Shown one piece after another: positions 186-40,570 of a DNA stretch of 64,000 nt. The stretch comes from Holophagales bacterium. GTDB lineage: Bacteria > Acidobacteriota > Thermoanaerobaculia > Multivoradales > Multivoraceae. A program made the position numbers and the translations under genes. Each line of letters opens with the position of its first letter. Within the stretch, counting starts at the first letter, position 1. The DNA is taken from assembly GCA_009837885.1 (NCBI GenBank), contig VXSP01000014.1, forward strand, positions 31,498 through 95,497. The letters are read 5' to 3'. The notes beneath the pieces were generated by a model. That model saw only the letters and a program-made list of their open reading frames with translations. It did no database searches and was not told where the DNA came from.

Positions 186-825
186 CGCTCACTCCTCCGC
201 CCTTGCCGCCCGCGACCACGGCGCGAATGCCCTTGTAGGTCCCGCAGCGGCAGAAGTTGCCGCCAAGGCCCGCTTCGATCTCCGGTTCCGAAGGCGCCGG
301 GTGACGCGCGAGCAACGCCGCGGTCGCCACGACGAACCCCGGTGTGCAGAACCCGCACTGCTGCGCATCGTTGTCGACGAAGGCCTGCTGCACGTCGTGC
401 ATGGCGTCCGGCGACCCCAGTCCCTCGACCGTCGTGATGCTGCGTCCCGCGGACTCGATCATCAGCCGGCTGCACGCGTAGATCGGGCGGCCGTCCTCGA
501 GCACGGTGCAGGCGCCGCAGGTGCCGCGGTCGCAGACCCGTTTCGGACCCGTCACGTCCAGTCGATGGCGCAGGCCGTCGAGCAGGGTGACCCGTGGTTC
601 CACCGCCAGCCGGTGGGTGGCGCCGTTCACTTCGAGTTCGACGTCGACCGGACCCGGACCGACCGTTTCCGTCGCTTCCGAGTCGGCCGCCGCGGCGCCG
701 GCCTCACCGGTCAGCAGGCCCGTGGTCAGACCGCCCGAGAGGGCGCCCGCGGCGCCGCCACGCAGGAACGACCGGCGAGAGAATCCTGACCGCTTTGCGT
801 CGTCCGTCACGCGCCTACCCTTCAT
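178..825 (-). CDS. (2Fe-2S)-binding small subunit of a periplasmic molybdo-oxidoreductase (CoxS/PaoA/IorA-like), TAT signal
   Basis: 215 aa. SRRSFLRG twin-arginine motif; CGAC and CGFC-x-C cysteine clusters typical of 2Fe-2S ferredoxin-like plus 4-helix 2Fe-2S domains. Confidence 0.9.
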   Translation of the reverse strand: MKGRRVTDDAKRSGFSRRSFLRGGAAGALSGGLTTGLLTGEAGAAAADSEATETVGPGPVDVELEVNGATHRLAVEPRVTLLDGLRHRLDVTGPKRVCDRGTCGACTVLEDGRPIYACSRLMIESAGRSITTVEGLGSPDAMHDVQQAFVDNDAQQCGFCTPGFVVATAALLARHPAPSEPEIEAGLGGNFCRCGTYKGIRAVVAGGKGGGVSGG

Positions 826-880
826 CTACGCCCAACTGAATCGAAGCGAATCGGAAGCCGCCACTCTACCAGTTGGAGCC

Positions 881-2002
881 CTACGAACGTGCGCTCGCGT
901 CCCGATGTCGAAGCCGGCGACACACCTCGACGAACTGGGACAGCCCGTCCGCGGTCAGCATCCCCTGCAACTCATGGTCGCGAACGACCCAGAGCGCCCT
1001 CGCCGGACTCTGGAGATCCCGCAGCACGTCCAGCAGGTCGCAGTCCTCCGCCACCGTCAGCGGGTCCCGGTTCATGAGCTCCAGCAGGGGCGTGTCGCCA
1101 GGAAACCGGGTCACCGATTCGAGCAGACGGTCGCGGTCCACTTCCCCGGCCACCCTGCCCCAGCCGTCGACCACCGGAAACTGGCGCTGCGTGGTCGAGA
1201 GCAGCAGGCGGACCGCCCACTCGATCGTGTCCTGGGGCGCCAGGCGCTCGCAGCGGGTCATCATCGCTTCGCCCGCCCGGCGACCCTGTAGCACCTGGAG
1301 CGTCTTGACCAGGGAGGACTCCCGGCTCGCGCCCACGAGGATGAAGAAGGCAGTCAGGAACAGGAACAGGTTGAACGCCACGCCGAACTGCCAGGGGATG
1401 AGAGCGGCGAGACCGAGAAGACCGGCGAGCACCATGCCCAGGCGGGTGGCGACCTTGGTCGCCCGCTCCTGCCCCATGGCGAAGGAGAGAGCCGAACGAA
1501 GGATGCGGCCGCCGTCGAGCGGGAACGCGGGGAGCAGATTCAGCGCGAACAGCAAGAGGTTACCGGCCAGCAGCCACTGCAGCGCCGACGGCACGTCGAC
1601 GACCGCTCCGGCGCCCAACGGCGGGAGCCCGGCGACCGTCAGCCCGATGAAGAGCACGATCGCGAGTACCAGGTTGAGCAGGGGACCTGCGGCGGCGATC
1701 GCCAACTCGACCATGCCCTTGGGATAGCCGTCCAGGCGCGCCACGCCGCAGACCGGAGTCAGGACGATGTCACGGGTCTCGATGCCGAACCGCCGGGCCA
1801 TGAGGGCATGGCCGAGTTCGTGGACGATGACGCTCGCCAGCAGACCGACGACGACGAACGTCAGCAACAGCGCGCTGCTGCCCATGTCCGGCGCCAGCAC
1901 CGCCAGCCAGACGAACAGGAGGATGAACGTGAAGTGGATCCGCACCCTGATCCCGAACAGGGTCAGCATGTGGAACGCGAGGCCGCGCGCCAGGGGTCTC
2001 AT
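881..2002 (-). CDS. Site-2 protease family zinc metallopeptidase (M50) with C-terminal CBS domains
   Basis: HELGHAL HExxH motif, multiple TM segments, LDGG motif, CBS-like C-terminus. ATG at 2002 overlaps the upstream aminotransferase stop (ATGA at 1999-2002). The track ORF 881..2704 is an N-terminally over-extended version. Confidence 0.85.
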   Translation of the reverse strand: MRPLARGLAFHMLTLFGIRVRIHFTFILLFVWLAVLAPDMGSSALLLTFVVVGLLASVIVHELGHALMARRFGIETRDIVLTPVCGVARLDGYPKGMVELAIAAAGPLLNLVLAIVLFIGLTVAGLPPLGAGAVVDVPSALQWLLAGNLLLFALNLLPAFPLDGGRILRSALSFAMGQERATKVATRLGMVLAGLLGLAALIPWQFGVAFNLFLFLTAFFILVGASRESSLVKTLQVLQGRRAGEAMMTRCERLAPQDTIEWAVRLLLSTTQRQFPVVDGWGRVAGEVDRDRLLESVTRFPGDTPLLELMNRDPLTVAEDCDLLDVLRDLQSPARALWVVRDHELQGMLTADGLSQFVEVCRRLRHRDASARS

Positions 2003-3171
2003 CCCGCTCGACCTCCGGCAGCGAAGGACGGAGCGACGTGCCCGGTCGACCGGCTGAGAACGCGGACGAGGCCCTCGAGCCCTGAAGCCAGCACCTCGTC
2101 GCTGCAGGCGAAAGACAGCCGCAGGTGACCCTCGCAGCCGAAGGCGGAACCGGGCGTGGCGGCGACGCGCGCCTCGTCCAGCAGGCGGCGGCAGAGGGAA
2201 GCGGAGTCGGAACACGACTCGTCGAGGCAGGCCCTCACGTCCGGGAAGGCGTAGAACGCCCCGGCCGGCGGCGGGCAGACGACTCCGGGCACCCGGCCCA
2301 GTTCCCGGAGCACGAGGTCCCGCCGGCGCGCACAGGCCGCGACCAGCGCCGCCGACTCGGGCGGCTCCTCCGCCAGGACCGCTTCGGCCCCGGCCATCGC
2401 GAAGGAGGTCGCGTTCGAGGTCACGTGGCTCTGGACGGCGGCCGCGGCCGTCACGACGCCGGCCGAACCGAGCAGATAGCCCACTCGCCAGCCGGTCATG
2501 GCGTAGCTCTTCGAGAACGAACCGACCAGCACCACGGTCTCCGGGTAGCGGGCCGCCAGCGCCGCGACGCTGGCGTGACGCCGGCCGTCGTAGACGAAGC
2601 GCTCGTAGGTCTCGTCCGAGATGAGGAGCGCCCCCCGCTCGGCGCAGGCCGAGGCCAGGCGCTCCAGATCGAGGATGGAGGCCACGGCTCCCGTCGGATT
2701 GCACGGCGTGTTGACGATCACCGCCCGGGTCCGTTGCGACATCGCCTCGATCAGCGGCTGGGCCCGGATGGCGAAGCCGTCCTCCGCCGCCATCGGCACA
2801 GTCACCGCCTCGGCCCCCGCGAGTCGCACCTGGGCCGGAATGCTGACCCAGGCCGGCGTGGGTATCACCGCTTCGTCGCCCGGGCCCAGAAACGCCCGGG
2901 CAAGCTGGTACAGGGCCGCCTTCGCGCCCACCGTGACCAGCACGTTGGCCGCGCTCCAGGGCGCTCCAGAGGCGCCGTACCGTTCCGCCAAAGCCGCTCT
3001 CAACTCGTTCGTGCCCTCCAGGACCGTATACTTCGTCCTGCCCTCGTCGAGGGCTCGCTGTGCAGCCTTCACGGCTGTCTCGGGCGAGGGGAAGTCGGGC
3101 TCTCCGGCTCCCAGGTCTAGGACCTCGATTCCCTCGCTGCGAAGCTCGGCAACCCGCCGGGAAACCGCCAT
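1999..3171 (-). CDS. Class I/II pyridoxal-phosphate-dependent aminotransferase (aspartate/aromatic aminotransferase-like)
   Basis: SFSKSYAMTGWRVGY PLP-lysine motif, GEPDF, NTPCNPTG. Start ambiguous between ATG at 3171 (MAVSRRVAEL..., preferred), 3201 and 3225. Confidence 0.85.
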   Translation of the reverse strand: MAVSRRVAELRSEGIEVLDLGAGEPDFPSPETAVKAAQRALDEGRTKYTVLEGTNELRAALAERYGASGAPWSAANVLVTVGAKAALYQLARAFLGPGDEAVIPTPAWVSIPAQVRLAGAEAVTVPMAAEDGFAIRAQPLIEAMSQRTRAVIVNTPCNPTGAVASILDLERLASACAERGALLISDETYERFVYDGRRHASVAALAARYPETVVLVGSFSKSYAMTGWRVGYLLGSAGVVTAAAAVQSHVTSNATSFAMAGAEAVLAEEPPESAALVAACARRRDLVLRELGRVPGVVCPPPAGAFYAFPDVRACLDESCSDSASLCRRLLDEARVAATPGSAFGCEGHLRLSFACSDEVLASGLEGLVRVLSRSTGHVAPSFAAGGRAG

Positions 3172-34510: not shown

Positions 34511-35660
34511 CTCGAACACCACCAGGGTCGGTCTGACCGTACTCGCGGCCATCGTCGCGCTTGCGGCCTTCATCTTCGCGATCGGCGAGCAAAGCGCCCT
34601 GTTCACGCCCACCAACAGCTACCGGACCATGTTCCCGAACGCCGCCGGGCTGGTCGAGGGGAATCCCGTTCAACTGAACGGCGTGACCGTCGGCAGGGTC
34701 GACCGCATCCTGCTCAGCGAAGACCCGAACAGCGAACTGCTGGAGGTGCGGATCAGCGTCGAACGGCGCTACGCGAGCCGGCTGCGGCGAGACTCCCTGG
34801 CGCGCCTCAAGACCCTGGGCCTGCTGGGCGACAAGTACGTGGAGATCACCTCGGGTTCGCCCGAAGCCGTCCTCCTCAATCCCGGCGAGGAGATTCCGGC
34901 GGCCCTGCCGACCGACGTCGACGAACTGATCGCCAGCGGCGCGGACGTGGTCGACCATGCGGTCGTGACGGCCCGTTCCCTGTCGAACATCCTCGCCCGC
35001 ATGGAGCGCGGGGAGGGCCTGCTCGGCGAACTGGTCGCCGCCCGCGACGACAAGCGAGTCACCGACACGGTGATCAGTACGCTCGAGTCGATCGAGCGTG
35101 TGGCCGATCAGGTCGAGGCAGGCGACGGAGTCCTCGGGCGGCTGCTCACGGACCGCGAGATGGGCGACCGGATGGCCTCTTCGATCGAGGAACTGGACGA
35201 GACCCTGAGGCTGCTGCGAGAGGGCGAGGGCCTGGCGCCGGCGCTGCTCCGCGACGGGGAGCTGAAGGTCCGCTTCGAGACGACCCTGACGGACACGCAG
35301 GTTGCCGCCGCGGATCTCCGGGAGATCACCGCCGACCTGCGCGAGGCCGACGGCCTCCTGCCCCGGCTCCTGAACGACGAGGAACTGAGCGAATCGCTGA
35401 CGACCGAGGTCGAACAGCTCCTCAAGCGGCTCAACTCGACGCTGGACCAGGTCGCGGAAGGAGACGGCACGGCGGCCCGCCTGATCAACGACCCCGCGAT
35501 CTACGAGGCGCTCGACGACCTCGTGGTCGGCATCAACGAGTCGAGGCTGCTCCGCTGGCTCGTCCGCAACCGGCAAAAGGCGGGCATCAAGAAGCGGTAC
35601 CGGGAAACGCAGGACGCGGTCGCGGCAGCCGGGTCCGAAGATCCGGGAGAACGACCGTGA
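34500..35660 (+). CDS. mlaD: MlaD/MCE-domain protein with extended helical C-terminus
   Basis: N-terminal TM plus MCE domain (NAAGLVEGNPVQLNGVTVGRV), long coiled-coil C-terminus. Confidence 0.85.
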   Translation: MQRDSNTTRVGLTVLAAIVALAAFIFAIGEQSALFTPTNSYRTMFPNAAGLVEGNPVQLNGVTVGRVDRILLSEDPNSELLEVRISVERRYASRLRRDSLARLKTLGLLGDKYVEITSGSPEAVLLNPGEEIPAALPTDVDELIASGADVVDHAVVTARSLSNILARMERGEGLLGELVAARDDKRVTDTVISTLESIERVADQVEAGDGVLGRLLTDREMGDRMASSIEELDETLRLLREGEGLAPALLRDGELKVRFETTLTDTQVAAADLREITADLREADGLLPRLLNDEELSESLTTEVEQLLKRLNSTLDQVAEGDGTAARLINDPAIYEALDDLVVGINESRLLRWLVRNRQKAGIKKRYRETQDAVAAAGSEDPGERP

Positions 35661-35938
35661 TCGCCTGCGCCCGTTGCGGCCGGGAACGGGAAGCGCTCGC
35701 CGCGCCGCCAGTGCCCGGCGCCACAGGCGAGGAGATCGCCCAACGCGTTTGCGCCGGCTGCTGGGAAGAGTGGGCGGCGATGGAGATCAAGGTGATCAAC
35801 GAACTGCGCCTGAACTTCATGGATCCGGCGGCGCAGGCCACCCTCACGAGCCACATGAGGGACTTCCTCTTCCCCGGCGACGACTCCAGCGTCCAGCCGG
35901 GGGAACGACTCGACTTCGAGTCGATCGGGGAACCTTAG
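35657..35938 (+). CDS. yggX: Fe(2+)-trafficking / oxidative-damage protection protein (YggX family)
   Basis: CARCGRE...AGCWEEWAAMEIKVINELRLNFMDPAAQATLTSHMRDFLF; GTG start overlaps the mlaD stop (GTGA). Confidence 0.8.
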   Translation: MIACARCGREREALAAPPVPGATGEEIAQRVCAGCWEEWAAMEIKVINELRLNFMDPAAQATLTSHMRDFLFPGDDSSVQPGERLDFESIGEP

Positions 35939-35998
35939 GCGGTGACCCGGGGTCCTCTGACACCGGGAAGAGACGGCTGCCGACCGCCAGGCCGGCTC

Positions 35999-36598
35999 CT
36001 ACCTCCACGGCCGGCGCGAGGGCTCGCGGATCCGGCGAAGCATCCGGCGACGCCGGTTCTCCGGGTCGGCCGGGTCGTTCGAGAACAGGCGCATCACGTC
36101 GCCGTCGCGAGCGAAGCGGTAGCGGCGCGCCGGCTTCCTGCCGTTCAGACCCTTGGCCGCGCTCTTCGCGTAGGTCCAGAGCTGGACATCCGGGTCATCG
36201 ATGTCACGATGCTCCTCCCACTCCGTCTTCTCCGGGTCGCCGAACAGGATGTAGACCATGCCCCGGTCCGTGCGCCGGCCGAGCCGGCCGGATTCCGAGT
36301 AGCGCTTGTCCGCCTCGGACGCGCGGGCGTCGAACTGCCGCCGCAGACCGGCGTCGCGGCGGCTCCAGAACTCGTCGACGAAGGCGGCGGCCTCGTCGTC
36401 CGACTCCAGCAGGAGGTAGAGGGTCCGTTCCTCTTCGTCCGCAAGCTGCCCCACGGGCCCCACCAGCCAGCTCGTGTAGCCGGGACCCAGGAATGGATTG
36501 ATCAGGTCGTCCGGATGGAGCCGCTCGAGGCTCTCCGCGGCGTGAGCGGCGCCAGCGGCCAGGACCCCGAGGGCGAGAGCCAGACCGAACCGTCGCAC
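35999..36598 (-). CDS. Secreted GWxTD-domain protein
   Basis: Signal peptide MRRFGLALALGVLAAGAAHA; GRRTDRGMVYILFGDPEKTEWEE resembles the GWxTD motif region. Confidence 0.7.
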   Translation of the reverse strand: MRRFGLALALGVLAAGAAHAAESLERLHPDDLINPFLGPGYTSWLVGPVGQLADEEERTLYLLLESDDEAAAFVDEFWSRRDAGLRRQFDARASEADKRYSESGRLGRRTDRGMVYILFGDPEKTEWEEHRDIDDPDVQLWTYAKSAAKGLNGRKPARRYRFARDGDVMRLFSNDPADPENRRRRMLRRIREPSRRPWR

Positions 36599-36599
36599 G

Positions 36600-37226
36600 T
36601 CAACGGCTCTTCAGCAGGTCCAGGAACTCCTCCCGAATCGGGCGTTCGTGGAAGATGCCGCGAAGCGCCGACGTCACCGTCCGTGCCCCCGACTTCTCCA
36701 CCCCGCGCATCTCCACGCAGAGATGCCGGGCCTCGATCACGACCATCGCGCCGCGGGGTCGGAGTTCCTCTTCGAAGAAACTCACGACCTGCTCGGTGAG
36801 GCGCTCCTGGAGTTGTGGCCGCTTGGCGTAGAACTCGAGGATGCGCGCGAACTTGGACAGGCCCAGGATCTTGTCGCCGGGGACGTAGGCGATGTGGGCG
36901 TGACCGTAGAAGGGCACCAGATGGTGCGAACACATGGAGTAGAACGGGATGTCCTTCTCCATCACCATGGCCCGGTAGTTCTCGTCGTTGGGGAAGGTCG
37001 TGACCCTCGGCTTGGTGCCCTGATCCAGGCCCCGGAACATCTCCAGGTACATCTTGGCGACCCGCTCGTGCGTGGTCTTCAGATTCGGGTCCTCCAGGTC
37101 GAGACCGAGCTCGACCAGCAGCCTTCGCACCAGCTCCGCGAGGCGAGCCACCCGCTCCCGGTCCCGAACCGCCGGCGGACCGTCTTCGTAGGTCGAAACC
37201 CGCTCGACCGGTTCCAGAACGCGCAT
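36600..37226 (-). CDS. folE: GTP cyclohydrolase I
   Basis: YSMCSHHLVPFYGHAHIAYVP, VVIEARHLCVEMRGV, the FolE signature. Confidence 0.9.
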   Translation of the reverse strand: MRVLEPVERVSTYEDGPPAVRDRERVARLAELVRRLLVELGLDLEDPNLKTTHERVAKMYLEMFRGLDQGTKPRVTTFPNDENYRAMVMEKDIPFYSMCSHHLVPFYGHAHIAYVPGDKILGLSKFARILEFYAKRPQLQERLTEQVVSFFEEELRPRGAMVVIEARHLCVEMRGVEKSGARTVTSALRGIFHERPIREEFLDLLKSR

Positions 37227-37282
37227 CGGCGCATGCTACCGTAGTCGCCCGCGGTCAGAAACAACGACGAGGACGGAGTCCG

Positions 37283-37510
37283 ATGAGCCGAGTGACGATC
37301 GAATACTGCGTAATGTGAAACTACCGGCCCCGAGCCGCCGGTCTGGCGGCTCAGTTGAAGGAGCAGTTCGACCTCGACACCGAACTCGTGGACGGCGGCG
37401 GCGGCGTCTTCGAGGTCGCCCTCGACGGCCGCCCCGTCTTCTCCAAGAAAGAGCTCGGTCGCTTCCCCGACAACGGCGAAGTCGAGCACGCCGTCGCCGA
37501 GTTGCTGTAG
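37283..37510 (+). CDS. selW: SelW-like / Rdx-family selenoprotein with in-frame UGA (Sec) at 37316-37318
   Basis: Not in the ORF track. ATG 37283 with GGAG 5 nt upstream; reads MSRVTIEYCVM-U-NYRPRAAGLAAQLKEQFDLDTELVDGGGGVFEVALDGRPVFSKKELGRFPDNGEVEHAVAELL. C-x-x-U redox motif and GGGGVFEV / FSKKE.GRFP blocks are Rdx/SelW hallmarks; TGA sits exactly where Sec lies in this family. Confidence 0.75.
37332..37352 (+). ncRNA. SECIS-like hairpin 14 nt downstream of the selW UGA (cis mRNA element)
   Basis: GAGCCGCC-GGUCU-GGCGGCUC: 8-bp stem, 5-nt apical loop containing GGUC, loop ~22-26 nt after the UGA, matching the bacterial SECIS geometry bound by SelB. Confidence 0.55.
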
Positions 37511-37552
37511 CGGCGCGTTGCTGCAGCGGCGCGTTGCTGTAGCGCCGCGCCG
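37502..37552 (+). repeat. Three tandem 16-bp repeats (GTTGCTGTAGCGGCGC variants) immediately 3' of selW; the first unit supplies the selW TAG stop
   Basis: gttgctgtagcggcgc / gttgctgcagcggcgc / gttgctgtagcgccgcg seen directly. Part of the extended arm of MITE-like element A; a single homologous unit encodes the C-terminal QLVQRRR of rlmD at element B. Confidence 0.7.
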
Positions 37553-37597
37553 CGCGGCGGAGCAGCGGAGCGGCGGAGGTAGTACCCGTCCGCTGGA

Positions 37598-37758
37598 GGC
37601 GTTCCGGGGGAGGGTTCCCAGCGGCCGCTCGCGCAACCTCGGTTGTGGGAAAGACGGCGCTCGCTTCGGTCGGCTGCGCTTCACATCGGCGTCAGTAACT
37701 GAACCGGCGGAGGGAGTCACTTGCCTCCAGCCCGCTGGGAACCCTCCCCCGGAACGCC
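37598..37758. mobile_element. MITE-like element A: 161 bp with perfect 27-bp terminal inverted repeats (GGCGTTCCGGGGGAGGGTTCCCAGCGG)
   Basis: Left end 37598-37624 is the exact reverse complement of right end 37732-37758. Interior shares GCGCTCGCTTCGGTCGGCT and CACTTGCCTCCAGC blocks with element B. Conserved flanks extend ~20-30 bp on each side, so the full unit is ~210-220 bp. Confidence 0.7.
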
Positions 37759-37923
37759 GGGCGGACTGGTCGTCGTTGCAGGCCGGTCGCGAAGCCACAC
37801 ACTGGGTGCGCCGGCGTCCTCGCCGGCTTTCGGGCGACGTCGCGAAGGGGCGTCGCACGTAGGGAATGGGTGAGGCCGGAGGCCTCGCGCTCACGGGCGG
37901 TCACAGAACGCTACGATCGGGGC

Positions 37924-38412
37924 GTGTCCGGCACCTACTCACTACGCCTCGGCAAGGAGGACTTCAAGTTCTCGGCGGCGCACTTCACGGTGTTCTCGGA
38001 GGACGAGGCGGAGGCTCTTCACGGACACAACTACCGGGTGCGCGTGGAACTGGGCGGTCCAGGGGTGGACGAGTTGGAGTTCCTCGTGCCGGTCGCCGCG
38101 GCGAAGCGGGACATCCGGTCGCAATGCGCGGAGCTCGACGAGAAGGTCCTGCTGCCCGAGGAGTGCCCGCATCTGGAGCTGACTCGATCCGGCGAGACCG
38201 TAACTACCCGGTTCGGAACGCGGCGGTACGAGTTCCCGTCATCGGAGGTCGTCCTCCTGCCGGTAGCGAACGTGACCGTCGAGGCGCTGGCCCGGCTGCT
38301 CTGGGAACGCCTGGCGGACCGATGGGGCTCTCTCCGCGACCGAGTGAAAACGCTCGAAGTCATCGTGGCCGAAACCCGGGGCCAGGGCGCCAGCTACCGG
38401 CGCAAACTCTAG
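37924..38412 (+). CDS. 6-pyruvoyl-tetrahydropterin synthase family protein (PTPS/QueD fold)
   Basis: VSGTYSLRLGKEDFKFSAAHF...LHGHNYRVRVEL (HGH zinc motif) ...EC.HLE. GTG at 37924 preferred over the track ATG at 37870. No Cys four residues before HGH, so probably not a canonical QueD. Confidence 0.8.
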   Translation: MSGTYSLRLGKEDFKFSAAHFTVFSEDEAEALHGHNYRVRVELGGPGVDELEFLVPVAAAKRDIRSQCAELDEKVLLPEECPHLELTRSGETVTTRFGTRRYEFPSSEVVLLPVANVTVEALARLLWERLADRWGSLRDRVKTLEVIVAETRGQGASYRRKL

Positions 38413-38422
38413 GAGCATCGCC

Positions 38423-38857
38423 TTGAAGACGCAGTTCGATCCCGACGACAGCCAGGCGGCGACCCTCCGCGGACTCGATCCCGACGCCCCGGTTGCCGCG
38501 CTCAACCTCTTCCAGTTCAACGACCGCGCCCGGTACGCACCCGGCGACGAGGAGTACGGAACCGAGGAAGCCGAAGTCTCCGGTCAGGAGGCCTTCCAGC
38601 GATACGCAGCCTCCGCGGGACAGGTCCTTGCCGACCTGGGAGGCCACGTTGCGTTCACCACGATGGTGGATCACGTGATGATCGGGCCTTCGGACCCGGC
38701 CTGGCACGTCGCGGCGATCATGGTCTTCCCTTCCCGGCGGGCCTTCATCGAGATGACGATGAACCCCGAGTTCCAGGCCGCCTCCCGCCACCGGAAGGCC
38801 GGCCTGGCGAACCACTACCAGGTGCACCTGAACGGCGCGCCCTGGGTGGAGGGGTAG
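38423..38857 (+). CDS. DUF1330-family protein
   Basis: 144 aa; C-terminal region (VAAIMVFPSRRAFIEMTMNPEFQAASRHRKAG) resembles the DUF1330/dimeric alpha-beta-barrel family as recalled. Confidence 0.7.
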   Translation: MKTQFDPDDSQAATLRGLDPDAPVAALNLFQFNDRARYAPGDEEYGTEEAEVSGQEAFQRYAASAGQVLADLGGHVAFTTMVDHVMIGPSDPAWHVAAIMVFPSRRAFIEMTMNPEFQAASRHRKAGLANHYQVHLNGAPWVEG

Positions 38858-38970
38858 TCAGCTCCCGCTTCCCTCCTTCGGGCGAGGCCCCATCGTTGCA
38901 AGCGAGGGCCTGCCAAGAGGACCGGCACTCCACGCCGTGCCGCAAACGCCGACAACGACCAGTCCGCGGC

Positions 38971-39131
38971 GGCGTCCGGAGGGGAGGGTCCCAGCGGGCT
39001 GGAGGCAAGTGTCTCCCCGGATCGTCACCCCAACCATCATCGAACCGCAGCGAAGCCGACCGAAGCGAGCGCAATCTCCCCCACCACCAGGAAAGCGTGA
39101 GCGGCCGCTGGGACCCTCCCCTCCGGACGCC
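38971..39131. mobile_element. MITE-like element B: 161 bp, perfect 27-bp TIRs (GGCGTCCGGAGGGGAGGGTCCCAGCGG), inverted relative to element A
   Basis: 38971-38997 is the exact reverse complement of 39105-39131. The TIR differs from A at several positions, each change mirrored in both arms. Interior is the reverse complement of A's interior with divergence. Right flank continues into the last codons of rlmD (ends 39146). Confidence 0.7.
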
Positions 39132-39145
39132 GCCCCGGACGGGTA

Positions 39146-40570
39146 TCACCGCCGCCGCTGCACCAACTGCGCGACAGTTTCGAGGTGGGCGGTCTGGGGG
39201 AAGACATCGAAGAAGGAGATGGACTCGAGGTCGAAGTCGCGGGTCAGGTCGCCAAGGTCGCGGGCGAGGGTGGCGGGGTCGCAGGAGACGTAGGTCAGGC
39301 GGCGGGGCGCGGCGTTGAGGAGGGCGCTGCGGACCTTTCGCGCCAGGCCGCCGCGGGGCGGATCGACCAGCACCCGGTCGAGGCCGGATTCCAGACCCGG
39401 GCCGCCGCGCCTCCGGTCGATCCAGCTATCGACCGCCGACCGCTCGACGCGGCAGTGGCGGAGACCGTTGCGGCGCAGGTTGTTCCGCGCGTAGCGGGCG
39501 GCGACCGACTCGCCTTCCACGGCCGTGACGGACCGGTAGCGATCGGCGAGACCGACGGTGAAGAAGCCGACGCCGGCGTAGAGCTCCGCGGCGGCCTCGC
39601 CCTCGAAGGGTCCGACCGCCGACAACAGAAGCGACTCCAGGAGCCCGCCGTGCGCCTGGAAGAAGCAGCGGGCGTCGTAGCTGAGCCGTTTCCCCAGAAG
39701 ATCGATCTCGAGTTCTCCGCCCGGCAACCCGTCGACGGGCGGCGCCGCCACCACCGGACTGTCCGGCTCCAGACCCGCCGTCGCCAGGCTGAGGCGGCTC
39801 GGCGGTTTCCTGGAAGCAGCAGCCCGGTCGACCAGCAGCAAAGACAGACCGCGCAGCTCATTCTCGAGCGCCGGAGCGAGCACCGGACAGCGGTCGACGA
39901 GGACCAGGTCGCGGCTGCGACGGCGCCGGAAGCCAACGCCGACCGGCTCCTCCGCACCCGGCTGGCGCGTCCCCGCGTCAGCCGCGTCACAGTCCGAGCG
40001 CCCGTCTTCGGGCGGTCGGATGTCGCGCGGGGCAACATGAACCTGTGCCCGCAGCCGATAGCCCCAGGCCCTCTCGCTCACCGGCTCCTCGAAGCGGCAC
40101 GCGGCGAGCTGGGCCGGGTCGATACCGCCCAGCCGGCGCAACGTCTCCATGGCCGCCGCCACCTTGAGGCCCAACTGCTCCGCGTCCTCGATGTGCTGGA
40201 GCTGGCAGCCGCCGCAACGCTCGTAGAACGGACATGGCGCTTCTCGCCGTAGCGGCCCCGGCGTTTTCACCTCTTCGATCTCCGCGCGGGCGTAGCTCGG
40301 GCGACGCTCGGTGATCCTGGCCTCCACCACGTCGCCGGGGGCGGCGCGCGGCACGAACACCGGCATGCCGCGCCACCGCGCCAGGCCGTCGCCGCCGAGC
40401 ACGATCTTCTCGATGGTCAGCTCCAGGCGATTGATGCCGGCCAGTGCCGCCAACGCTTCCAGGCGCTCGGCCGACAGCGGCTGCTTCCTGGGACTCGCTT
40501 CACCGCCGCCAAAGCCGTCGCGGACGCCGTGTTTGGCCCCAGCCCCCACCTCGCTAGCACCCTGCGCCAC
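39146..40570 (-). CDS. rlmD: 23S rRNA (uracil-C5)-methyltransferase RlmD/RumA family (TRAM + Fe-S + SAM-MTase)
   Basis: TRAM domain (LELTIEKIVLGGDGLARWRGMPVFVPRAAPGDVVEARI), cysteine cluster CPFYERCGGCQLQH, C-terminal DPPRGG...YVSCDPATLARD MTase motifs. N-terminal start not verified. Confidence 0.85.
   Translation of the reverse strand: MAQGASEVGAGAKHGVRDGFGGGEASPRKQPLSAERLEALAALAGINRLELTIEKIVLGGDGLARWRGMPVFVPRAAPGDVVEARITERRPSYARAEIEEVKTPGPLRREAPCPFYERCGGCQLQHIEDAEQLGLKVAAAMETLRRLGGIDPAQLAACRFEEPVSERAWGYRLRAQVHVAPRDIRPPEDGRSDCDAADAGTRQPGAEEPVGVGFRRRRSRDLVLVDRCPVLAPALENELRGLSLLLVDRAAASRKPPSRLSLATAGLEPDSPVVAAPPVDGLPGGELEIDLLGKRLSYDARCFFQAHGGLLESLLLSAVGPFEGEAAAELYAGVGFFTVGLADRYRSVTAVEGESVAARYARNNLRRNGLRHCRVERSAVDSWIDRRRGGPGLESGLDRVLVDPPRGGLARKVRSALLNAAPRRLTYVSCDPATLARDLGDLTRDFDLESISFFDVFPQTAHLETVAQLVQRRR

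Follow-up and report, generated by a model that had tools for sequence, protein, structure and literature searches.

In a 64,000-nucleotide (nt) stretch of a Holophagales bacterium genome (GenBank assembly GCA_009837885.1, contig VXSP01000014.1, positions 31,498 to 95,497; here called the window and numbered from its first letter), two inverted-repeat elements, A and B, lie in opposite orientation on either side of a gene pair encoding a 6-pyruvoyl-tetrahydropterin synthase-like (PTPS) protein and a DUF1330 protein. These elements are paralogous copies of a dispersed, clade-restricted, palindromic intergenic repeat family with a unit of about 205 nt, and we hypothesize, giving this reading as a whole a probability of roughly 0.5, that the repeat is cotranscribed with the gene preceding it and acts as an RNA structure in the 3' untranslated region (3' UTR) of that gene. 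The family is best read as closest in kind to the REPINs (paired repetitive extragenic palindromic [REP] sequences), the enterobacterial repetitive intergenic consensus (ERIC)-type elements and the bacterial interspersed mosaic elements (BIMEs), and as now sedentary.

The original prediction had described A and B as homologous 161-bp units of opposite orientation with perfect 27-bp arms, and remeasurement of arms and spacing bore this out (A, 37598 to 37758; B, 38971 to 39131). An inverted-repeat search placed the arms of A, which are 100% complementary over 27 nt, at 37598 to 37624 (GGCGTTCCGGGGGAGGGTTCCCAGCGG) and 37732 to 37758 on the plus strand; between them lies a 107-nt interior (37625 to 37731) composed of a hairpin, H1 (CGCTC-GCGC...GCGC-TCGC), followed by a domain that is closed off by a long-range helix showing covariation. 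The arms of B, likewise 107 nt apart, are perfect over the same 27 nt, perfect over 30 nt when taken as 39105 to 39134 (the 5' arm on its own, minus strand) and 38968 to 38997 (the 3' arm), and 95% complementary over 40 nt when flanks are included (38958 to 38997 and 39105 to 39144). A and B are the sole strong short-range inverted repeats in the window, and the conserved core motifs of the family occur in it only at these two places, where the chance expectation for a 23-mer is 0. As had also been proposed, the true unit is longer than 161 bp, at about 205 to 215 nt: the family profile matched A at 37577 to 37781 on the plus strand (about 205 nt; profile positions 4 to 206; E = 1.5e-40; alignment A2) and B at 39151 to 38946 on the minus strand (about 206 nt; positions 4 to 207; E = 6.3e-46). 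A runs from a 5' head, (GTAG)TACCCGTCCGC, through the long stem and a three-helix interior to a 3' tail, GGGCGGACTGGTCGTCGTTGC, and the head of B, GGTGATACCCGTCC, includes the TGA stop codon (39146 to 39148) of the methyltransferase gene to which B is sense. Compared as A(+) versus B(-), the two show 84% mean column identity over 37560 to 37800 and, by BLAST, 76% identity over 211 nt, well past the arms. They fold as RNA to -139.1 kcal/mol (A; z = -6.3 versus shuffles) and -139.4 kcal/mol (B; z = -6.05).

The same anatomy recurs throughout the family. The core from TCCCAG to CTGGGA measures 123 to 129 nt in every copy, and outward from it lie, in turn, a conserved stem segment (CCGG(A)GGG(G)AGGG(G)TCCCAG), a copy-variable stretch in which complementarity is nevertheless kept (perfect arm runs of 17 to 36 bp across copies), and a conserved outer helix (GCC(T)GC paired with GC(A)GGC). 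The ends of the unit are asymmetric (5' ..GG(T)NGCACCC and 3' CTGGACGGCGTCGG), with a conserved head (5' ..GCACCCGCC) and tail (3' GGCTGGACGGCGTCGG) that are not complementary to each other; beyond them conservation falls to nothing, leaving a unit of about 205 nt with fixed polarity. GTAG precedes the head at about six sites, and many copies carry GACG in the head and CGTC in the tail; GTGG, CTGA and other tetranucleotides are equally common. The idea that the interior flips between its own arms, raised to explain locus L008 (L numbers denote fetched loci), was rejected, as the polarity of head and tail is fixed relative to the interior in all copies.

In the collections scanned, nearly all matches to the family fell in one bacterial group. 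A structural pattern built from four copies (arm core, 100 to 130 nt, arm core) was scanned against 185,579 species genomes and, in its strict form, matched 72 loci, about 69 of them in sponge-type Acidobacteriota (Thermoanaerobaculia/"Candidatus Multivorans"). These 69 or so loci are on metagenome-assembled genomes (MAGs) or complete long-read chromosomes, mostly from sponges, labeled Thermoanaerobaculia, "Candidatus Multivorans," Holophagales, Vicinamibacteraceae or Acidobacteria bacterium; the other three are chance-like single-strand matches in cyanobacteria and Streptomyces. Among JGI metagenomes the pattern matched eight loci, four of which hold true copies (five copies in all), and plasmid and phage collections yielded no match. 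A sequence profile searched with nhmmer over all fetched DNA (846 kb) recovered all copies, namely, about 90 full ones (87 without duplicate loci) and a few partial ones, of which only A and B lie in the window. The full copies are spread over about 28 genomes or metagenome bins, all of them sponge-type Thermoanaerobaculia ("Ca. Multivorans" and relatives). The proposal that A and B belong to a dispersed repeat family is thereby confirmed. We consider the family low-copy because complete genomes gave three to seven strict-pattern hits each and sampled genomes held 2 to 10 copies (1 to 2 for bins hit at a single locus). Since the same family is present in long-read complete chromosomes of 4.4 to 5.4 Mb, the assembly artifact that had been raised as a caveat can be set aside. 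Rfam returned nothing on the elements, either in the window (at the gathering score and at E values up to 10) or at 15 related loci (at the gathering score), and the literature consulted contained nothing relevant on repeats of "Ca. Multivorans" or sponge symbionts; the family appears to be uncatalogued, though of a known kind. Copies are occasionally crowded, as at L046 (380 to 1013), where three copies or partial copies lie inside 650 nt, and at L043 (2674 to 2982), where a full copy is directly followed by a partial tandem duplicate (profile positions 113 to 206).

The structure of the family covaries strongly. RNAalifold predicted 38 pairs, 25 of them with compensatory changes, and mutual information added one long-range interior helix. 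On the resulting 40-pair structure, counted over 70 sequences, 97.6% of cells are paired, 27 of the 40 pairs have changes on both sides, and 356 cells changed on both sides against 101 expected; none of 500 shuffles reached these values, and a control with partners slid by one to three columns retained 41 to 51% pairing. The helices of the interior covary as well (alignment A2 columns 61-68/94-101 for H1, 104-106/165-167 and 110-116/156-161). The arms of A and B differ by small indels (T/T versus A/G), each with a matching change in that element's other arm, as the original prediction had observed, and these differences are part of the family-wide stem covariation. Because 27 of 40 pairs covary and no shuffle did as well, the claim of compensatory maintenance of the stem holds, and far more strongly than could be seen from a pair of copies.

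The copies are also polar, starting 0 to 100 nt past the stop codon of the upstream gene and in sense to it. The nearest upstream gene is on the strand of the element for 59 of 71 copies, and the orientation of the downstream gene is random (31 versus 28). The upstream stop codon mostly lies 32 to 105 nt before TCCCAG, and the element therefore begins at the stop or within about 60 nt after it; TAG or TGA directly precedes (C/T)ACCCG at several sites, and the methyltransferase TGA at B forms part of GGTGATACCCG. Counted per independent site cluster, 17 sites are convergent, 16 tandem sense, 4 tandem antisense and 1 divergent, and by our reading of the distances the element abuts the gene to which it is sense at about 14 to 15 of the 17 convergent sites. 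In the window, the upstream host gene of A is a Rdx/SelW-like selenoprotein gene (37283 to 37510, plus strand; Pfam Rdx) with a CVMU motif and an in-frame TGA at 37316 to 37318, and that of B is a RumA-like gene with TRAM and tRNA/rRNA (uracil-5) methyltransferase domains (39146 to 40570, minus strand; PF05958 and PF01938). Across the family, judging from translated gene ends, the hosts include what we take to be nqrF, moaA, gatB, relA/spoT, threonine synthase, TonB-dependent receptor, sigma-54 activator, trkA, CoxM-like subunit, acyl-CoA dehydrogenase, Rdx and RumA-like methyltransferase genes. Two specific roles suggested by the neighborhood of A and B, a riboswitch or regulator of folate/pterin genes and a 3'-UTR selenocysteine insertion sequence for the Rdx selenoprotein, were rejected, as the same element stands behind more than 25 unrelated genes.

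Several local arrangements accompany these positions. In the nqr region (L039, 3583 to 5095; likewise L019, L028, L083 and L087), a convergent pair brackets apbE in the order nqrF-[E+]-apbE-[E-]-nqrM, the second copy being antisense to all neighbors. Pairs in convergent orientation (plus, then minus), 0.5 to 1.5 kb apart, recur independently at no fewer than four pairs of sites; no divergent pair was observed. At L050 (2338 to 2506, minus strand), a cobalamin riboswitch (RF00174, 84 bits), an ordinary finding, lies upstream of a TonB-dependent receptor gene that has a family copy at its 3' end. Directly upstream of A, three tandem 16-nt copies (GTTGCTGTAGCGGCGC-like; 37495 to 37549) repeat the stop-codon region of the Rdx/SelW-like gene, a local triplication of its 3' end.

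Based on these patterns, we infer that the repeat would be transcribed within the 3' UTR of its upstream gene, each copy beginning at, or a few tens of bases past, the upstream stop in the orientation of that gene and often being followed by a small terminator-like module. A 45- to 55-bp stem carrying a conserved multihelix interior would then form a very stable RNA structure, which may set the fate of the transcript 3' end as a barrier to 3' exonucleases, as a termination or processing site, or by uncoupling expression within operons. As the host genes have no shared theme, any such role would be generic.

A number of observations weigh against this reading. Transcription of the repeat is deduced from genomic sequence. 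The non-Watson-Crick positions of the long stem comprise 41 G-T and 54 A-C, which is no G-U excess, and wobble pairs are tolerated on neither strand. The sense strand folds 12 kcal/mol better at 42 of 43 sites; this advantage comes from a skew of G over C (88 versus 77) and disappears in composition-matched z scores (sense, -6.1; antisense, -6.4). With neither a G-U excess nor a difference in z, nothing marks RNA rather than DNA as the molecule under selection, and the asymmetry of G-U versus A-C and the folding of sense versus antisense were both discarded as indicators of a functional strand, there being no signal beyond base composition. Further, a terminator scan found 0 sites, no U-tract follows the stem (the tail is GGCTGGACGGCGTCGG), the element is tandem antisense at 4 of 20 tandem sites, for example, between apbE and nqrM, and no functional theme unites the host genes. 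Proximity to the stop codon, and sometimes its inclusion, is not required for a 3'-UTR function and may instead reflect an insertion preference.

The same data bear on two other functional explanations. One is a noncoding RNA family, in which the stem would be a processing signal (e.g., for RNase III) that frees an interior of about 125 nt to act in trans or on a protein partner, with the copies using the 3' ends of host transcripts for their expression. The fixed interior length of 123 to 129 nt with its conserved blocks and covarying helices, the sense placement immediately after expressed genes, the lack of a promoter belonging to the element, and the retention of copies at orthologous sites across species while flanks decay are all in its favor; we nonetheless find it quite unlikely, given that no Rfam family matched, that dozens of diverging paralogs (72% identity) are unusual for a trans-acting RNA, that some copies are antisense to all neighbors, and that no strand-specific structural signal exceeds composition. 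The other is a site acting at the DNA level, that is, a cruciform or hairpin DNA bound by gyrase or a nucleoid protein, which would serve to release torsional stress where transcription units end. Binding of this kind has been proposed for BIMEs, and the strictly Watson-Crick palindromes, the enrichment both between convergent genes, where 17 of 38 classified sites lie, and at gene 3' ends, the direct CGCTCGC-like repeats in the interior and the coincidence with rearrangement and deletion breakpoints would suit it. A double-stranded site, however, needs neither a fixed polarity to the upstream gene (16 versus 4) nor covarying asymmetric hairpins in the interior, and no candidate binding protein was identified; we judge this explanation very unlikely.

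How the copies came to their sites is a separate issue. At a distance of ≤17%, the 87 full copies form 43 clusters, most of which are the same site in different genomes, as behind nqrF in six to seven genomes and behind a TonB-dependent receptor gene in five. Paralogs sharing a genome average 72% identity and do not exceed 88%. We therefore regard the family as old and mostly vertically inherited. The unit is conserved at these sites and the flanks outside it are not. The family must once have spread, since at least 43 distinct sites lie behind unrelated housekeeping genes, and it is not frozen: relatives differ in whether the A and B sites are occupied, the subfamily found at the B site depends on the clade, the copy behind the Iron_traffic gene in L008 is 87 to 89% identical to the B-site copies of sister genomes, and two paralogs in OZ244786 are 88% identical. 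These patterns suggest past spread followed by an essentially sedentary state, with vertical inheritance at fixed sites and occasional loss by deletion between the arms, of which the sequences at L006 (see below) are examples. The original prediction had set mobile DNA against a pair of sole copies conserved at orthologous positions; with about 90 copies known, A and B are by no means the only ones, but conservation at orthologous positions across species was indeed found.

It had further described A and B as resembling MITEs (miniature transposable elements with inverted repeats); MITEs in the strict sense they are not. A scan for direct repeats (all offsets, k = 2 to 8) at 36 independent sites detected no copy-specific target-site duplications (TSDs), the observed counts never exceeding permuted controls. 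The perfect inverted repeat of 17 to 36 bp is subterminal, inside conserved asymmetric ends, rather than terminal as in a MITE, and near-identical paralogs are lacking in the sample. The 846 kb around the 90 or so copies contain neither split nor long versions of the element, nor any insertion sequence (IS) or transposase flanked by its arms. Just one transposase lies near a copy, an IS110 about 25 nt downstream of the one in L037; use of the element as a target by IS110 was considered and dropped, this being one case, beside the small hairpin module described below. An origin as an integron attC site or gene cassette likewise finds no support, as R''/R' core sites (GTTRRRY) are absent from the alignment, the host genes are core housekeeping genes and downstream orientation is random.

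The main rival to a 3'-UTR structure is a purely selfish, REPIN-like replicator whose hairpin would be the single-stranded DNA substrate of a trans-acting HUH/Y1 transposase (RAYT- or TIRYT-like) or of another transposase; the stem would be kept perfect by the needs of transposition or by template-switching correction from arm to arm, and position and polarity would reflect insertions that were tolerated or targeted. Compensation that is Watson-Crick only, without G-U bias, fits this account, as do palindromic arms resembling REP doublets, many copies having GACG...CGTC or GTAG-like tetranucleotides at their ends; deletion derivatives and junctions at the arms (the L006 remnants and the L002/L003 junction); and the turnover of subfamilies at the B site together with the two 88%-identical paralogs in one genome. 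Among described elements, REPINs show compensatory changes and excision footprints (PMC3116915), and tagged REPs and terminal inverted repeat (TIR) families are associated with Y1 transposases, one Acidobacteria group among them (PMC3733652). However, we found no ORF for a RAYT (REP-associated tyrosine transposase) or IS200-like protein in the window or in the 846 kb around the copies, using motif regular expressions and tblastn with self-composed query sequences (a single marginal tblastn hit was an aminotransferase). Nor are there TSDs, defined excision ends or recent copies (paralogs being ≤88% identical), and the 113-nt interior, conserved and with covarying helices of its own, is unlike REPIN spacers; copy number is low (2 to 10 per sampled genome, 1 to 2 in single-locus bins), and polarity follows the upstream gene rather than both neighbors. 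On balance we regard a purely selfish replicator as somewhat unlikely.

Synteny decides against the claim that A and B delimit an accessory module. The gene content was described correctly, with folE, the selenoprotein gene, PTPS (37924 to 38412, plus strand; Pfam) and DUF1330 (38423 to 38857, plus strand; Pfam) all present, the last two between A and B and outside the repeat. The order in the window is MlaD - Iron_traffic - GWxTD(-) - folE(-) - Rdx selenoprotein(+) - [A] - PTPS - DUF1330 - [B], followed by TRAM/U5-methyltransferase(-) and, farther on, class II ribonucleotide reductase; the folE protein is also encoded on a 216,891-nt sponge-metagenome scaffold (ENA ERZ23491927, SAMN12347678) and on contigs of MAG GCA_009842435.1. 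Loci fetched around DUF1330 homologs (76 to 94% protein identity) show PTPS-DUF1330 in the same order in all six relatives examined (L006, L008, L009, L037, L071 and L072), within a shared Rdx/folE ... PTPS-DUF1330-methyltransferase arrangement; both elements together occur only in the closest of these. L072 and L037 have both A and B at 94 to 96% identity, except for the A-site copy of L037 (78%); A has orthologs behind the same Rdx gene in L037 and L072 and B has orthologous-site copies in L037, L072, L009 and L071. In L009 and L071 the A site is empty and the B site is filled from a different subfamily; the copy in L009 shares only 63% identity with B of the window. In OZ244786 (L008/L034) both sites are empty (38 and 12 nt), and one copy stands behind the Iron_traffic gene. 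L006 (OZ220742, a 4.58-Mb chromosome) keeps the gene order of the window with gaps of 70 nt (Rdx-PTPS) and 92 nt (DUF1330-methyltransferase), the first holding only an element head, about 10 nt of arm and a tail, and the second the first 72 or so positions of an element; both are deletion remnants. Short palindromes at the "empty" sites of L006 and L009 had suggested insertion into a preexisting terminator hairpin. That idea was rejected: outer stem, head and tail are all conserved across the family, and L006, which keeps head and tail, is a deletion remnant.

Since relatives without elements, with remnants, or with a B copy of another subfamily keep the same synteny, PTPS and DUF1330 are ancestral, syntenic genes around which repeats came and went. 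A composite MITE-bounded mobile module, in which A and B would be the ends that brought in PTPS-DUF1330, is accordingly extremely unlikely. It had in its favor the inverted placement of A and B around two genes and alternative assemblies from which the cassette and B are removed. However, the cassette is syntenic in relatives without the repeats; A and B are only 71% identical in the paralog comparison, about the same as any two paralogs (mean, 72%), and hence no special pair, each having its own orthologs elsewhere; inverted pairs also flank core genes, such as apbE in the nqr operon; and no plasmid or phage carriers were found in the collections searched. The alternative assemblies, L002 (GCA_009842435.1, VYFK01000048.1) and L003 (ERZ23491977, scaffold_4552), which are other assemblies of the population of the window, share a junction, 37753|39140, that joins the right arm of A to the flank past B through 7 nt of microhomology (CCCCGGA) outside the B arm rather than by precise excision; it drops PTPS, DUF1330 and B and restores the long stem. 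Either the population is polymorphic for a genuine deletion, or the junction is a chimera induced by the hairpin. Past it, L002 continues with an N-gap and then 37773 to 38997, and contigs of other assemblies (L004 and L005) stop inside or beside the elements.

Two further observations concern this neighborhood. An 11-nt motif, GCTACGATCGG, lies just before the PTPS start (37910 to 37920) and is kept in all relatives examined (about 9490 in L006, 9487 in L008 and 9447 in L009), the remaining intergenic region being unalignable; it may be a regulatory or translation initiation signal for PTPS. In OZ244786 (L008/L034, 7294 to 9502, versus 35657 to 37924 of the window), the GWxTD-folE-Rdx segment is inverted relative to the window; the left breakpoint, behind Iron_traffic, carries the family copy that is 87 to 89% identical to B-site copies of sister genomes, and we were unable to explain the arrangement by one inversion alone.

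A second, smaller repeat is often found with the large one. Its general form is CTGGGTGCGC, then a GC-rich hairpin, often GGGTCTTCTGACCC, and then GCCGCCGAAGGCGGC. The one exact copy in the window, at 37802 to 37831 on the plus strand, lies 21 nt 3' of A and consists of CTGGGTGCGC with the terminator-like hairpin GCCGGCG-TCCT-CGCCGGC, followed by TTTC. In the sampled DNA, 19 of 39 exact occurrences lie 3' of a large element with the same orientation, at a distance of 1 to 115 nt; other copies stand alone behind genes, and exact copies elsewhere include L006 7849, L040 7070 and L052 6747. The module is probably a terminator-like or REP-like partner in a mosaic that runs from the stop codon through the large palindrome to the small terminator-like hairpin and is reminiscent of BIMEs. 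Behind Iron_traffic in the window (35936 to 35975) is a diverged module (CCGGGGTCCTCTGACACCGGG), intact at the same site in L006 (7849). In L037 (OZ242353), the gene for an IS110-family transposase (776 to 2200, minus strand; Pfam DEDD_Tnp_IS110 and Transposase_20) is part of an insertion from about 706 to 2507 between CACACTGGG and TGCGCCGGCG, inside a small module about 25 nt past the tail of an A-type element.

The family shares features with several known systems and matches none of them fully. Like REPINs and REPs, it is extragenic, with two inverted conserved arms that form a long hairpin in which compensatory changes are common (PMC3116915), and it lies mostly downstream of coding regions and is plausibly transcribed, as is described for REPs (PMC3733652). 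The outer arm segments form short palindromes rich in GC, many copies having GTAG- or CGTC-like tetranucleotides although others are as common, and, as in REPIN/BIME mosaics, a second small hairpin repeat is associated and copies decay to half-elements and remnants. Unlike in REPINs, no RAYT was found around the copies, the family numbers a handful to perhaps tens per genome rather than hundreds, the unit of about 205 nt has a conserved, independently structured interior of 113 nt in place of a poorly conserved spacer, polarity is strict relative to the upstream stop, and there is no sequence similarity to described REPs.

The ERIC/intergenic repeat unit (IRU) elements of Enterobacteriaceae, and the MITE-like Correia/NEMIS, RUP and SPRITE elements, are likewise imperfect palindromes of 100 to 200 bp in transcribed intergenic regions at gene 3' ends. 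ERIC has a low copy number in some hosts and copies at orthologous sites shared between related species. Small ERIC-type repeats at gene 3' ends are cotranscribed as long RNA hairpins and have been shown to affect mRNA stability in an orientation-dependent manner (PMC3184786), which is a direct precedent for the role proposed here. ERIC-type elements differ in having TIRs at their termini and TA target duplications (PMC3184786), whereas the present family has asymmetric ends and no TSD; it also belongs to a different phylum, lacks sequence similarity and has much longer, perfectly Watson-Crick stems. With IS-derived MITEs it shares a small, noncoding, multicopy, intergenic inverted repeat forming a long hairpin, but it departs from them in having no TSD, no cognate IS or transposase and no recent copies, in an inverted repeat internal to conserved asymmetric ends, and in an outer stem whose sequence varies between copies and yet remains complementary. 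The GC-rich hairpin right after stop codons in sense orientation resembles intrinsic (Rho-independent) terminators; with 205 nt, a 113-nt structured interior and no U-tract it is otherwise unlike them, and the small hairpin that follows is the better terminator candidate.

The absence of TSDs and of a transposase from the DNA examined, the low copy number, the long independently structured interior, the strict stop-proximal polarity and the Watson-Crick-only compensation fit poorly with any simple filing. It is conceivable, though doubtful, that the family represents something new: either a structured RNA class of sponge-symbiont Acidobacteriota, with a three-helix core of about 125 nt on a perfect 45- to 55-bp stem, possibly cut out, which would be transcribed by read-through from at least 40 housekeeping genes and act on mRNA fate or a dedicated protein partner, or else a RAYT-less, domesticated REPIN-type replicator with novel stop-proximal, strand-specific insertion.

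The A and B elements thus illustrate that inverted repeats around two genes are not in themselves a sign of a mobile cassette. Their analysis yields a clear-cut repeat family, with strong covariation, from a symbiont lineage that is uncultured and ecologically important; in this lineage the family marks gene 3' ends, provides hot spots of deletion and rearrangement, and explains contig breaks and misjoins in short-read MAG assemblies. It also offers a test case for a long-standing question about REP-like sequences, namely, whether hairpin covariation is kept up through the RNA, through the DNA or by correction of one arm against the other. Should the polarity reflect insertion aimed at stop-codon-proximal sites, such a mechanism would be new.

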